Virus record (IMG/VR): IMGVR_UViG_2541047120_000017 | From: a virus | Lineage: Duplodnaviria > Heunggongvirae > Uroviricota > Caudoviricetes | Length of the DNA: 5,340 nt | Direction: 5' to 3' (one strand) | Part shown: positions 1-4,661 of the stretch, in pieces | How the letters are laid out: each line of letters starts with the position of its first letter | Position numbering within the stretch: the stretch's first letter is position 1 | The notes under the pieces: model-generated | The model's database searches: none | What the model was told of the DNA's origin: nothing | What the model saw: only the letters and a program-made list of their open reading frames with translations | Made by a program: the position numbers and the translations under genes

Positions 1-101
1 GTTTTGCTTTTGGTATACGTCATCGCGGTGAATGTACCGTCCTGGTTGGGAAACACGCCGTACACCAGAGATTCGTTGTTGCCAAGATCGATAGTATCCA
101 T
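1..101 (-). CDS. Small prophage protein, N-terminal part only (gene continues past window start); N-terminus MDTIDLGNNESLVYGVFPNQDGTFTAMTYTKSK; resembles DUF1391 (YdfA/YdaF-type) small proteins
   Basis: ATG at 101-99 on the minus strand with GAGG 5 nt upstream; frame stays open to the window edge. Not in the supplied ORF track because it is truncated. Family assignment is recalled, not verified. Confidence 0.5.
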   Translation of the reverse strand, partial: MDTIDLGNNESLVYGVFPNQDGTFTAMTYTKSK

Positions 102-287
102 GTTGACCTCATTTCCCCTTAACGCCGGGTAGCGGAACAAAAACCTGCTGCATAGTTATTAAAGTTGAACCCTGCCGTCATGTTCATACGCCTCGGGCTG
201 GCTACTTACCCCCTGACCACTGCTTGGTAACTCGAAGTATTGCCCGGCGTTCTGTGGGGCGGGGTGGGTGGTTGGTGTATGTAATCT

Positions 288-327
288 ACAATAAAAAACT
301 GTTTTTGTGTCAACAGTTTTTAATTGT
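288..327. promoter_or_regulatory. Palindromic operator-like site (OL-like): ACAATAAAAAACTGT (288-302), 10-nt spacer, ACAGTTTTTAATTGT (313-327, one mismatch to the perfect inverse)
   Basis: The 16-mer ACAATAAAAAACTGTT is identical to the one at 1323-1338. The site lies upstream of the minus-strand gene starting at 101 and just past the parE terminator. TTGACA on the minus strand (313-308) sits in the spacer. Confidence 0.5.
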
Positions 328-337
328 TGTTTTGGGC

Positions 338-360
338 AAAAAAATCCCTCGAAAGAGGGA
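338..360 (-). terminator. Rho-independent terminator candidate for the repressor-antitoxin-toxin operon
   Basis: On the minus-strand transcript: 6-bp stem UCCCUC/GAGGGA (345-350 with 355-360) with a 4-nt loop, followed directly by U7 (plus-strand A-run 338-344). It begins about 20 nt after the toxin stop at 379-381. Confidence 0.5.
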
Positions 361-378
361 GTATGAAAATTGTTCAAC

Positions 379-666
379 TCAGATAGAGAAGGGAAATTGT
401 CGCCGAGAATGTGTCACGCTTACAATCTCAATGCTTGAAGCAGCTACTCTGTACAGGATTATGTAGTTAGGGTGGGTCACGATCTCTCTCAATCCAGAAA
501 CCCGTTCGCTTGGTGGATATAAGTACGGATGCTCAGATAGAGGTAATACCGATGTTTCAATGCGTATTTTTAGTCTACGTGCTGCCGGTGGGTTCTCCTT
601 GGCGATGTAAGTTATGATCTGGCGCAAATCATCGCGAGCAGACGGTAGCCATAAAATGGGTAACAT
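379..666 (-). CDS. parE: ParE/RelE-family toxin of a type II toxin-antitoxin system (ParE2-like, 95 aa)
   Basis: ORF track 379..666. Motifs LWLPSARDDLRQIITYIA, LPLSEHPYLYPPSERVSGLREIV and HPNYIILYRV...IEIV fit the ParE fold. Its ATG overlaps the stop of the upstream small ORF (minus-strand TAATG at 668-664). Confidence 0.85.
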   Translation of the reverse strand: MLPILWLPSARDDLRQIITYIAKENPPAARRLKIRIETSVLPLSEHPYLYPPSERVSGLREIVTHPNYIILYRVAASSIEIVSVTHSRRQFPFSI

Positions 667-857
667 TACTCGCTCTTGTTAGTTACAGCAATTTGAGCAA
701 TAAGATTTTCCATTTCAGCCATTACCTCGTCATGTGGAATTGCGGGGCGAGTGTCTGCAAGGCTTGACGTTACTTTAGTGCGCAACCATTCGTTGTAACT
801 GTTTTCTTGTTCGGTAGTTTCGAATTCTGAAACTATCGGAGAAAGGGCTGTACCCAT
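666..857 (-). CDS. paaA: Small acidic antitoxin (PaaA2-like, 63 aa) partnered with the ParE toxin
   Basis: ORF track 666..857. GAGGAG lies 7 nt upstream of the ATG at 857. The stop is coupled to the toxin start. Size and the segment SEFETTEQENSYNEWLRTKV...RPAIPHDEV match the recalled PaaA2 antitoxin. Confidence 0.75.
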   Translation of the reverse strand: MGTALSPIVSEFETTEQENSYNEWLRTKVTSSLADTRPAIPHDEVMAEMENLIAQIAVTNKSE

Positions 858-1286: not shown

Positions 1287-1322
1287 TATTCAATTTTACA
1301 GGTAAATACTGTTAAAAGCATC

Positions 1323-1361
1323 ACAATAAAAAACTGTTGATTGCATACAGTTTTTTATTGT
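1323..1361. promoter_or_regulatory. Palindromic operator-like site (OR-like) in the divergent repressor/Cro-like intergenic region: ACAATAAAAAACTGT (1323-1337), 9-nt spacer, ACAGTTTTTTATTGT (1347-1361), a perfect 15-bp inverted repeat
   Basis: Perfect inverted repeat read directly from the sequence, duplicated at 288-327. It sits between the repressor start (1286) and the Cro-like start (1395). Confidence 0.55.
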
Positions 1362-1394: not shown

Positions 1395-1667
1395 ATGCTA
1401 GATAGCACTCGCGAAAAAATTAGGCAGAAATACACTCAGGCTGAAATAGGTCGTTATATGGGGGTCGCTCAACAGACTGTTTGGCAATGGTTTAGCTTTG
1501 GCGTTCCCCCAAAGCAGGTAATTCCGTTATGCCAACTAATGAAGTGGGAAGTTACCCCGCATGAAATCCGCCCAGATATTTATCCTAACCCAACCGACGG
1601 TTTACCTGTTGGATGTAAGGTTAACACATCAAATGCGCCGGAGTTGATTCATGAAAATCAAGCATGA
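1395..1667 (+). CDS. Cro-like HTH regulator of the YdaS type (90 aa)
   Basis: ORF track 1395..1667. Strong SD GAGGAGGG 4-5 nt upstream. HTH segment TQAEIGRYMGVAQQTVWQWF and the VTPHEIRPDIY motif are typical of YdaS-type Cro analogues. Divergent from the repressor. Confidence 0.8.
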   Translation: MLDSTREKIRQKYTQAEIGRYMGVAQQTVWQWFSFGVPPKQVIPLCQLMKWEVTPHEIRPDIYPNPTDGLPVGCKVNTSNAPELIHENQA

Positions 1668-2076
1668 ACACATCCGCATGGCGATGAATGCCTGGGCGCA
1701 TCCGGACGGCGAAAAAGTACCGGCTGCGAAAATTACCAAAGCGTATTTCGAGCTGGGAATGACGTTCCCGGAACTGTATGACGACAGCCATCCGGAAGCC
1801 ATGGCTCGCAATACTCAGAAAATTTTCCGCTGGGTGGAGAAAGACACTCCTGATGCGGTTAAAAAAATTCAGGCGTTGTTACCAGCGATCGAAAAAGCGA
1901 TGCCGCCTCCGCTGGTGGCCCGAATGCGCAGCCACAGTTCCGCTTATTTTCGGGAGTTGGTAGAGACGAAGGAACGGCTGGTGAAAGATATTGATGATTT
2001 CGTTGCATCAGCGATCGTTCTGTTCGATCAGATGAATCGTGGTGGCCCGGCAGGAAACACTCTGGCTGTGCATTAA
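1651..2076 (+). CDS. ydaT: YdaT-type protein (CII-like regulator family, 141 aa)
   Basis: ORF track 1651..2076. GGAG 7 nt upstream of the ATG. N-terminus MKIKHEHI and overall size match the recalled Rac YdaT. Overlaps the preceding gene by 17 nt. Confidence 0.8.
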   Translation: MKIKHEHIRMAMNAWAHPDGEKVPAAKITKAYFELGMTFPELYDDSHPEAMARNTQKIFRWVEKDTPDAVKKIQALLPAIEKAMPPPLVARMRSHSSAYFRELVETKERLVKDIDDFVASAIVLFDQMNRGGPAGNTLAVH

Positions 2077-2599: not shown

Positions 2600-2816
2600 T
2601 CAATATGTCGAGACGAAGGTATGTTTCGGCGCGCAGCCAGGCTCTGTAATCCGGGAGCATTTCGGGGCTGTTACACCAGCGGTTTGTTGCTGCAACATTT
2701 AATACATGAGCCTGATAAAGGCTTTTCAAAAAATACATGTCGAACCTCCTCTGGTTCTGTCGATTGGGAACCACAGATTATATCCGGAGGAAGGTTCGGC
2801 ACCAGATGAGGTAGCC

Positions 2817-3908
2817 ATGCGTGATTACGCAAAAGTTTCTCCGCGATTCTGGCTGGGAGAAACGGGGAGAGAACTTAGAAAGGCGGGTGCAGAAGCGCAA
2901 GTTGTTGCTTTTTACCTGATGACATCCCCTCACGCAAATATGCTGGGTTTGTATTACCTGCCAGTTTTATACCTTGCTCATGAAACCGGGCTTGGTCTGG
3001 AAGGGGCTTCAAAGGGGCTTAAAAGGGCTGTTGAAGCTGGTTTTTGTAGCTATGACCATGATGCAGAGATGGTCTGGGTCCATGAAATGGCAGCCTGGCA
3101 GGTTGGGGAAACGTTGAAGCCTGGCGATAACCGTTGTGCAGGTGTCAGGAATGAGTATGCATCATTACCTGAAAACGCTTTTCTGTCAGTGTTTTACGAC
3201 AGATATAAAACGGATTTCCATCTGGATGTGAGGCGGAATAATAGCCGAAATTCGGTAAGGGGCTTCGAAGGGGCTTTTAAGGGGCTTCGAAGCCAAGAAC
3301 AGGAACAGGAGCAGGAGAAAGAACAGGAACAGGACAAAAACACTATGGTTCATGGCAAAAAAAACACCACGAACCAGGCAGGGGATGTTCAGACCGTCAA
3401 TCCTGGTCAGCCAGCAGGCACGACACCGGAAGCCGATTCGGGCGCTGTGCAGCAGGTGATGACCGCAGGGTCGGAGCAATCACACCAACTGCAGCAGCCT
3501 GAAGCCGATTCCGCCATTCAGCGGGAAGCCGATCGGGTAGTCCCGGAAAGCACCGGGCAGTCTGTGGGACGAGTGGATTATCCGGATGTGTTCGAACAGG
3601 TCTGGCGGGAATACCCGTTGCGTGCTGGGGCAAACCCGAAGAAATCCGCTTTCAGTGCCTGGAAGGCCAGATTGCGCGAGGGGGTGCCACCAGAGACCAT
3701 GCTGGATGGTGTGAGGCGTTACGCGAGATACCTGGCGGCGACCGGGAAAGCGGGAACGGAATTTGTTCAGCGAGCGACGACGTTTTTTGGGCCGGACCGG
3801 AATTTTGAAAACCCCTGGTTGCTCCCGGTAAGCGGCACGAACAACCAGCGTTGTGTGAATCATATTTCTGAACCGGATACCGAAATTCCGCCGGGATTCA
3901 GGGGGTGA
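2817..3908 (+). CDS. Replication initiation protein (lambda O-like role; occupies the position just upstream of the DnaC-like gene), about 363 aa
   Basis: ORF track 2706..3908. Start preferred at the ATG at 2817 because GAGG lies 5 nt upstream, whereas the ATG at 2706 has no SD. N-terminal domain, low-complexity E/Q-rich linker and C-terminal domain. Iteron-like DNA repeats lie inside the gene. Immediately followed by the helicase-loader gene. Confidence 0.8.
   Translation: MRDYAKVSPRFWLGETGRELRKAGAEAQVVAFYLMTSPHANMLGLYYLPVLYLAHETGLGLEGASKGLKRAVEAGFCSYDHDAEMVWVHEMAAWQVGETLKPGDNRCAGVRNEYASLPENAFLSVFYDRYKTDFHLDVRRNNSRNSVRGFEGAFKGLRSQEQEQEQEKEQEQDKNTMVHGKKNTTNQAGDVQTVNPGQPAGTTPEADSGAVQQVMTAGSEQSHQLQQPEADSAIQREADRVVPESTGQSVGRVDYPDVFEQVWREYPLRAGANPKKSAFSAWKARLREGVPPETMLDGVRRYARYLAATGKAGTEFVQRATTFFGPDRNFENPWLLPVSGTNNQRCVNHISEPDTEIPPGFRG
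2988..3030. repeat. Iteron-like cluster A: GGGCTT-type motifs at 2988, 3004, 3014 and 3025 (AAGGGGCTTC / AAAGGGGCTT / AAAAGGGCTG)
   Basis: Direct repeats at 10-11 bp spacing inside the initiator coding sequence. Successive copies are read in different codon frames. Confidence 0.4.
3257..3289. repeat. Iteron-like cluster B: three tandem 11-bp units AAGGGGCTTCG / AAGGGGCTTTT / AAGGGGCTTCG
   Basis: Exact tandem repeats with 11-bp period. The three copies are translated in three different frames (RGF / EGAF / KGLR), so the repeat is a DNA-level feature. Confidence 0.5.
3297..3338 (+). repeat. Hexanucleotide tandem repeat (GAACAG)n, 7 units with variants, encoding an (EQ)n linker
   Basis: Units GAACAG GAACAG GAGCAG GAGAAA GAACAG GAACAG GACAAA read directly from the sequence. 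In frame with the initiator gene. Confidence 0.7.
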
Positions 3909-3914
3909 TGTGGC

Positions 3915-4661
3915 ATGAAAAACATTGCGGCAGCCGGGGTTCTTGAACGTATTCGCAGACTTGCACCACAGGCGTCGGTTCCACCGTACCGGACGGTGGA
4001 GGAGTGGCGGGAATGGCAACTTGCTGAAGGACGAAAACGCAGCGAGGAGATTAACCGCCAGAATCACCAGTTGCGGGTGGAAAAAATCCTGAATCGTTCG
4101 GGCATCCAGCCTCTGCACAGCAAATGCTCGTTTGCGAATTATCAGGTGCAGAACGACGGGCAAAAATACGCGCTGAGCCAGGCCAAATCCATAGCTGACG
4201 AACTGATGACCGGGTGCACGAATTTTGTGTTCAGCGGTAAAACCGGCACCGGGAAAAATCACCTTGCAGCGGCGATGGGTAACCGGCTGATGGCGAAGGG
4301 GCGCAGCGTGATTATCGTCACCGTGTCTGATGTCATGAGCGTGTTGCATGACAGCTACGACAACGGCAAATCCGGGGAAAAATTTTTACAGGAGCTTTGC
4401 AGTGTTGATTTGCTGGTCCTGGATGAAATAGGCGTTCAGCGGGAGACGAAAAACGAGCAGGTGGTATTACACCAGATAATTGATCGCCGGACAGCATCAC
4501 TGTGCAGTGTCGGGATGTTAACAAACCTGAATCATGCCGCAATGAGTACACTTCTTGGTGAGAGGATTATGGACCGCATGACCATGAACGGTGGTCGATG
4601 GGTGACGTTTAACTGGGATAGCTGGCGTCCAAATGTCAGCAATATGAGGGTTGTGAAGTAA
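3915..4661 (+). CDS. dnaC: DnaC-type AAA+ helicase loader (phage replication protein; YdaV-position), 248 aa
   Basis: ORF track 3915..4661. Walker A FSGKTGTGKNHLAAA, with the GKN variant characteristic of DnaC. Walker B LLVLDEIG. C-terminal WVTFNWDSWR resembles the DnaC C-terminus. SD GGGGGTGA upstream. Confidence 0.9.
   Translation: MKNIAAAGVLERIRRLAPQASVPPYRTVEEWREWQLAEGRKRSEEINRQNHQLRVEKILNRSGIQPLHSKCSFANYQVQNDGQKYALSQAKSIADELMTGCTNFVFSGKTGTGKNHLAAAMGNRLMAKGRSVIIVTVSDVMSVLHDSYDNGKSGEKFLQELCSVDLLVLDEIGVQRETKNEQVVLHQIIDRRTASLCSVGMLTNLNHAAMSTLLGERIMDRMTMNGGRWVTFNWDSWRPNVSNMRVVK

Follow-up and report, generated by a model that had tools for sequence, protein, structure and literature searches.

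Two prophages provide the closest described counterparts to the region considered here. In CP-933P, PaaR2 and YdaS each repress the promoter PL933P about 100-fold, and octamer formation is reported for PaaR2 (Jurenas et al. 2021, mBio, PMC8630535). In Qin, DicA represses dicBp, and deletion of dicA raises the activity of this promoter 22-fold (Ragunathan et al. 2023, PMC10448788). Escherichia coli O157:H7 is also reported to carry two paaR-paaA-parE systems (review PMC4803016). With regard to the repressor encoded by the DNA described herein, a stretch of 5340 nt (hereafter the window), no paper on its operators was found in the literature.

Positions 283-327 of the window very probably constitute the OL/PL of a lambdoid prophage immunity region in E. 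coli O157:H7, comprising two 15 bp operators and a leftward promoter. This reading draws on the sequence itself, on statistics, on conservation among relatives and on homology of position with promoters that have been tested, and the features on which it is built are collected in Table 1. The arrangement is an ordinary lambdoid one, already shown by experiment in the two sister prophages, and introduces no new principle.

Table 1. Features of the window discussed in the text
Feature	Position	Strand	Description
ydfA, 5′ part (DUF1391)	1-101	-	First gene of the leftward ydfA-ydfB-DicF-dicB-exonuclease-integrase operon
Leader of leftward transcript (predicted)	102-276	-	C-rich 5′ end; placed by alignment, with a putative start site near 276
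PL -10 (predicted)	283-288	-	TAGATT; 19 nt from -35 in the window allele, 17-18 nt in relatives
OL1	288-302	-	Predicted 15 bp operator, reads ACAGTTTTTTATTGT on the minus strand; identical to OR1; between PL -35 and -10
PL -35 (predicted)	308-313	-	TTGACA, read from the sequence; the same T-TGAC follows O2 at PL and PR in relatives
OL2	313-327	-	Predicted 15 bp operator, reads ACAATTAAAAACTGT on the minus strand; 1/15 mismatch to OR2; abuts PL -35
Intrinsic terminator	338-360	-	Stem 360-345, T-run 344-338 (TTTTTTT); ends the repressor-paaA-parE operon
ParE-family toxin	379-666	-	PF05016; paralogue of crystallised ParE2, not identical
PaaA-family antitoxin	666-857	-	PF21217; paralogue of crystallised PaaA2, not identical
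CI-like repressor, 133 aa	885-1286	-	434-like HTH, helix TQQTVQQW, PaaR2/DicA-like C-terminal domain
OR3-like	1298-1312		ACAGGTAAATACTGT; more degenerate; overlaps putative PRM -10 (TAAAAT, minus strand, 1298-1293)
OR2	1323-1337		ACAATAAAAAACTGT; abuts putative PRM -35 region and PR -35 (TTGATT, 1337-1342)
OR1	1347-1361		ACAGTTTTTTATTGT; between PR -35 and PR -10 (TAGGTT, 1361-1366)
YdaS, Cro-like	1395-1667	+	Recognition helix AQQTVWQW
YdaT, CII-like	1651-2076	+	
Replication genes	2706-3908, 3915-4661	+	

Genetic organisation of the locus

The window matches, at 100 % identity, an E. coli O157:H7 prophage integrated next to yccA, which is probably of the CP-933M/Sp4 type carrying paaR1-paaA1-parE1; we infer that the module seen here is probably paaR1-paaA1-parE1 and its repressor PaaR1. 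The antitoxin and toxin genes lie downstream of, and are co-oriented with, the regulator gene, as in PaaR-PaaA-ParE systems, and the regulator has no peptidase domain, Pfam detecting HTH domains only. The small leftward gene that an earlier note on this DNA had placed from position 101 is real, being a homologue of DUF1391/ydfA (Pfam E = 1.8e-17; RefSeq annotation). Within the full prophage, a 19.4 kb locus (L001), it heads an operon of ydfA, ydfB, an ORF, DicF (Rfam, 76.9 bits), dicB, an exonuclease and an integrase, such that the transcription unit downstream of OL begins with ydfA and contains both DicF and dicB, as is typical of the Qin type. The order ydfA, OL/PL, terminator, parE-paaA-repressor, OR and ydaS puts the repressor operon between OR and OL/PL, with OL/PL directed away from the repressor gene, as is the case for OL/PL in lambdoid prophages.

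Between the repressor gene and OL, the cargo differs from relative to relative (L004, L007, L012, L013, L015) and includes PaaA/ParE, unknown ORFs of 112-306 aa, DUF2767 and a PLD-family protein; this variable accessory-gene site is comparable to that of lambda rexAB. Further along the window, positions 1644-1661 match the published YdaT motif TTGATT-N6-AATCAA exactly (TTGATTCATGAAAATCAA) and span the ydaS stop and ydaT start, which is the position of the PRE933P fragment in CP-933P. Units of GGGGCTT(N)AAAGGGGCTT, in direct and inverted orientation, occur at 2996-3037 and 3252-3304 inside the gene for the 400 aa replication protein and resemble the iterons of an origin lying within an O-like gene; the adjacent (GAACAG)n run (3295-3334) codes for a linker rich in Glu and Gln. 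On the minus strand, 2283-2738 is annotated in RefSeq as an 'ECs1072 family phage-associated protein', overlapping a plus-strand ORF of 169 aa (2090-2599) without a Pfam match.

Comparison with CP-933P, Qin, lambda and 434

For the comparison with CP-933P, the 5′ end of paaR2 was rebuilt from published primers, by which a CP-933P-like locus (L019) was retrieved, with the paaR2 gene at 2501-2872. Three other loci (L009-L011) had been considered as CP-933P itself and were rejected, as the rebuilt 5′ end shows PaaR2 to be a third repressor type. CP-933P has the same order of PL, parE, paaA, repressor, PRM/PR, ydaS and ydaT, with paralogous PaaA and ParE, and likewise possesses a YdaT site at the ydaS/ydaT junction. 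The published PL933P reporter fragment maps to 3365-3484 of L019 and ends exactly where the leader (ACCAACCCACCCCGCCCCACAGAACGC...) begins; in the window, OL/PL is followed by the same leader. The two repressors are 42 % identical over the C-terminal 98 aa, with much higher identity in the last 45, whilst their N-terminal HTH domains are unrelated. The operators differ, with a consensus of GTTTAGTAA reported for CP-933P as opposed to ACAR-N7-YTGT in the window, and three OL operators are reported there compared with two here; furthermore, ydfA is disrupted in the CP-933P-like locus but intact in the window prophage. Since the DNA-binding domain of PaaR2 is unrelated, data obtained with this protein carry over by position and architecture only. 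It looks, from these sequences, as though DNA-binding domains have been swapped on a common oligomerisation domain, with the N-terminal type of L009 as a third, also linked to PaaA/ParE.

The earlier note had likened the arrangement to that of DicA in Qin, and this likeness is supported. Qin (Bejar et al. 1988; PMC10448788) likewise encodes a short repressor without a self-cleavage domain (28 % identity to that of the window over 111 aa, E = 6e-12), and its own operator, TGTTAGTCATAACTAACA, is present both in the dicA/dicC intergenic region and between the -35 and -10 of dicBp, upstream of ydfA-ydfB-ydfC-DicF-dicB. The operator sequence is, however, different from ACAR-N7-YTGT, three OL operators are reported rather than two, the leader is much shorter than that of the window, and neither a toxin-antitoxin module nor a terminator separates repressor from promoter.

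As in lambda and 434, several operators spaced about 24 bp centre to centre overlap divergent early promoters and the repressor mRNA is probably leaderless; accessory genes lie between repressor gene and OL, as rexAB does in lambda, and ACA half-sites are combined with a QQ..Q recognition helix, as in 434. Differences are found in operator length (15 bp, versus 14 bp in 434 and 17 bp in lambda), in the number of OL sites (two, versus three in lambda), in the lack of a RecA-sensitive C-terminal domain, and in the short distance of just about 1 kb between OL and OR.

Repeated sites at OL and OR

A 16-mer, ACAATAAAAAACTGTT, occurs at 288-303 and again at 1323-1338, the starts of the two copies lying 1035 bp apart. 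When aligned as 15 nt arms, ACAATAAAAAACTGT is present at 288-302 (plus strand), 313-327 (minus strand, with one T-to-A mismatch), 1323-1337 (plus) and 1347-1361 (minus), the spacer between arms being 10 nt at OL (303-312) and 9 nt at OR (1338-1346). The earlier description of an identical 16-mer recurring some 1 kb away, with a near-perfect inverse arm that carries one T-to-A change and a spacer of 10 instead of 9 nt, is thereby borne out for the 15 nt arms. Allowing up to three mismatches, the 15-mer is found four times in the window, against 0.20 expected, and none of 200 dinucleotide shuffles reaches four. The pattern ACAR-N7-YTGT occurs exactly five times, at the OL and OR sites of Table 1, against 0.45 expected (0/200 shuffles reach five), and the whole 19.4 kb prophage contains the same five sites and no others.

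Three of these sites lie between the repressor gene and the Cro-like ydaS, forming OR, and two form OL. The OL operators match those of their own OR, as expected for a lambdoid OL/PL, with OL1 identical to OR1 and OL2 one base in 15 away from OR2; the flanks also match beyond the operators (TTGA.., TAG.TT), in inverted orientation only. A third OL operator was sought upstream of OL2 and was not found, the terminator occupying that space.

Whilst the repeats are real, the functional unit is probably not the palindrome as first described but each 15 bp ACAR-N7-YTGT site. In relatives, the complementarity of the long arms decays to 3-6 mismatches in 15, whereas the ACA and TGT ends of the 15-mer stay fixed, and the 40 bp palindrome was therefore rejected as the functional unit. 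Read in this way, the palindrome of the window is two adjacent, mirror-image predicted operators.

Conservation and co-variation in related prophages

A contig search with the repressor yielded one locus, from Arsenophonus; other relatives were reached via homologous proteins and the contigs encoding them. The repressor/ydaS intergenic regions aligned were those of Salmonella (80 % identical), Raoultella, Klebsiella and Pluralibacter (about 68-70 %), a 61 % relative and Arsenophonus (48 %). This alignment reveals three equally spaced 15-mers of the form ACAR-N7-YTGT and no single long palindrome. Prophages of Salmonella, Raoultella and Pluralibacter, whose repressors are 68-80 % identical, have the strict layout of three OR and two OL sites, and in Arsenophonus the strict pattern holds for two sites at OL and two at OR. 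For the Klebsiella and 61 % loci the layout is kept, but most sites depart from strict ACAR-N7-YTGT. Among 40 sites from eight loci, ACA (positions 1-3) is retained by 39-40 and TGT (positions 13-15) by 37-40. When the similarity of each OL to its own OR was set against that to the OR of other loci, the own pairing was lowest, or tied lowest, for five of the eight loci, not for all.

Two further loci, L009 and L015, encode proteins with other helices (AQQSVQKW for the repressor, QQV[VI]SRW for YdaS) and have no ACAR sites at OR or OL. Instead, L009 possesses repeats of its own, TAACTT..GTGT, at both OR and OL; L015 carries L009-like repeats at OR, with no matching OL found. As judged from these sequences, protein and operator co-vary at both places in L009, in addition to being conserved amongst the nearer relatives.

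Among 5426 complete E. coli genomes, about 480-510 carry this immunity type. A tblastn search against isolated phages returned no repressor above 60 % identity, and hence the type is seen only in prophages of these collections.

Promoters, leader and terminator

The PR promoter consists of TTGATT (1337-1342), an 18 nt spacer and TAGGTT (1361-1366). Every PL and PR in the family follows one design, namely O2, T-TGACx, 3-5 nt, O1 and T-AGATT-like. The minus-strand TTGACA that had been placed in the OL spacer is present (313-308), although only five of its bases belong to the spacer, the remaining one being the last base of the 313-327 arm. Together with TAGATT (288-283) it makes a candidate sigma-70 -35/-10 pair, which the OL operators overlap. 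A scan for consensus promoters makes no call here because the spacer, at 19 nt, lies beyond the limit of 18 (16-18 being usual); at the homologous place in the E. coli allele with a 9 nt OL spacer, and in Salmonella, TTGACA-18-TAGATT is called with 10/12 matches. Promoters with 19 nt spacers can still be active, though weaker, and PL in the window allele may be weak.

The site lies directly after the parE terminator, as the earlier note had it: a stem (360-345) followed by seven T's, beyond the end of parE (379-666, minus strand). Terminators of other sequence occupy the same position in L004, L009 and L014; with a terminator preceding OL in several relatives, the leftward operon needs a promoter of its own.

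The leader of the leftward transcript (ACCAACCCACCCCGCCCC...) begins 6 nt after the predicted PL -10. It spans about 175 nt ahead of ydfA, and its 5′ end is rich in C and poor in G (ACCAACCACCCACCCCGCCCCACAG). Although missing from Qin, it is highly conserved between prophages whose operators and repressors are unrelated. Its predicted structure is not unusual (102-276; z = +0.83), for which reason its reading as a riboregulator was dropped, and Rfam gives no match in positions 1-1500 of the window, leader included. It could be a Rho-utilisation or antitermination-related element.

Upstream of the repressor gene, the putative PRM -10 (TAAAAT, 1298-1293) is followed after 6 nt by the ATG (1286), with no Shine-Dalgarno sequence, and this spacing is kept in all eight of the relatives. 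Such an arrangement points to a repressor mRNA without a leader, as has been reported for lambda cI and paaR2.

The probable DNA-binding proteins

In a sequence search of the PDB with the repressor, the closest solved relative was the phage 434 repressor; HipB also matched, and no PaaR2 structure was among the matches. The recognition helix, TQQTVQQW, aligns with TQQSIEQL of 434, with all three glutamines kept. The operators of phage 434 have the form ACAA-N6-TTGT, which fits the ACA half-sites seen here. Each 15 bp site probably binds one dimer of the 133 aa repressor. As YdaS has a recognition helix (AQQTVWQW) that hardly differs from that of the repressor, it probably uses the same OL and OR sites, in the manner of Cro in lambda and 434.

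An allele restricted to part of the E. coli population

This OL is present in 478 E. coli genomes, of which about 250, mostly O157:H7, have exactly the allele of the window. The 00_3230, War and N58 alleles (L016-L018, about 1350-1390) have an OL spacer of 9 nt. In 00_3230 and N58, OL1 is ACAGTTTTTAATTGT, the exact reverse complement of OL2, giving a perfect palindrome and an 18 nt promoter spacer, and in War OL1 is one base away from this sequence. No OL spacer of 10 nt was found in the other family members examined. Given this distribution, the allele of the window is, on sequence comparison, derived, with one additional A in the A-run of the spacer (303-312) and an A-to-T change in OL1, and is not a conserved design feature.

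Relative to the other E. coli alleles, the PL spacer is 19 rather than 18 nt and the OL1-OL2 distance 25 rather than 24 bp. The earlier suggestion that altered spacing and mismatch give differential affinity is possible; the clearest predicted effect, however, is the suboptimal 19 nt PL spacer. That the change retunes basal or induced expression of the DicF/DicB operon, as well as the stability of an OL-OR loop enclosing paaA-parE, is a tentative proposal and rather improbable. Were it true, it would amount to a minor adaptation of regulation, acting on a small RNA of prophage origin that other authors connect with gene regulation in EHEC.

Alternative explanations

The repeats could in principle be chance, or a functionless recombination scar between mosaic prophage modules, given that the sequence is A/T-rich and of low complexity, that mosaic junctions are close by, and that the conserved leader begins right after the -10. 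Against this, the observed counts are matched by none of the shuffles, and distant genera keep the layout, which co-varies with the recognition helix, such that the comparative data effectively refute it. Scarcely more credible is that the palindrome acts as an RNA hairpin or terminator, for instance a second or bidirectional one after parE, and not as a protein-binding DNA site. It does fold at -12 to -14 kcal/mol, and the 9 nt allele is listed by the scan as terminator-like on the plus strand, with the tail TGTTTTGG. The same sequence nevertheless stands between divergent promoters at OR, where a terminator would be senseless; the stem is almost pure A-U, the minus strand has no U-run of the kind a terminator requires, and no plus-strand gene runs into the palindrome. 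Moreover, the arms decay in relatives (3-6 mismatches in 15) without compensatory changes, whilst ACA and TGT remain invariant.

If the sites are operators, it is still conceivable, though very unlikely, that OL is bound mainly by a protein other than the repressor, such as YdaS alone, the CII-like YdaT or the PaaA-ParE complex. The near-identity of the YdaS helix to that of the repressor speaks for the first of these, and PaaA-ParE has earlier been reported to repress the paaR promoter partly (review PMC4803016). The same operators are found at OR and OL in relatives devoid of PaaA/ParE, however, and the toxin-antitoxin complex is therefore not needed as an explanation. For YdaT, the sequence near OL offers just a three-mismatch motif match at 327-344, which is at chance level, as opposed to the exact site at 1644-1661. 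In the tested homologues both CI-like and Cro-like proteins act at PL, and glutamines of the 434 type, which suit ACA half-sites, are retained in the repressor. A greater, if still small, likelihood attaches to real operators at which PL is no longer effective in the O157:H7 allele, OL then serving mainly as a repressor sink or as an auxiliary or looping site, and ydfA-dicB staying essentially silent with or without repressor. The 19 nt spacer, where all relatives and the other E. coli alleles have 17-18 nt, the absence of a promoter call in the window, and the cryptic or mosaic nature of the prophage are all in keeping with this. On the other hand, the -35 matches TTGACA perfectly, A2 and T6 are retained in the -10, spacers of this length are compatible with weaker activity, the downstream leader and genes are intact, and about 250 genomes carry exactly this allele.

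Proposed control of the leftward operon and its implications

The preferred reading remains that of an OL/PL region. The claim that an OL/OR-like pair of operators allows one repressor to control both operons finds support in comparative and positional evidence, that is, in the layout, in the matching OL and OR sets of relatives and in the homology to PL933P. By analogy with PL933P and dicBp, PL would be a repressor-dependent promoter at which both the CI-like and the Cro-like protein act. Repressor dimers would occupy OL2 and OL1 and, since OL2 abuts the -35 and OL1 fills the gap between -35 and -10, bound repressor would block RNA polymerase at PL, leaving the ydfA-ydfB-DicF-dicB-exonuclease-integrase operon silent. 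Read-through from the repressor-paaA-parE operon would be stopped by the terminator at 338-360, YdaS would act at the same operators in Cro-like fashion, and transcription from PL would start near 276. As the C-terminal domain of the repressor is homologous to that of PaaR2, for which octamers are reported, a DNA loop could bridge OL1-OL2 and OR1-OR2, about 1035 bp apart; such a loop of about 1 kb, enclosing the toxin-antitoxin module, is plausible by analogy with lambda CI.

What results is an operator code (ACAR-N7-YTGT, with three OR and two OL sites) and a promoter map for one prophage immunity type, both of use for annotation and for the design of reporter and binding experiments. Within this map, paaA-parE is cargo between the repressor gene and OL, in the position held by rexAB in lambda, and the OL/PL region is the predicted control point of the DicF/DicB operon in O157:H7.
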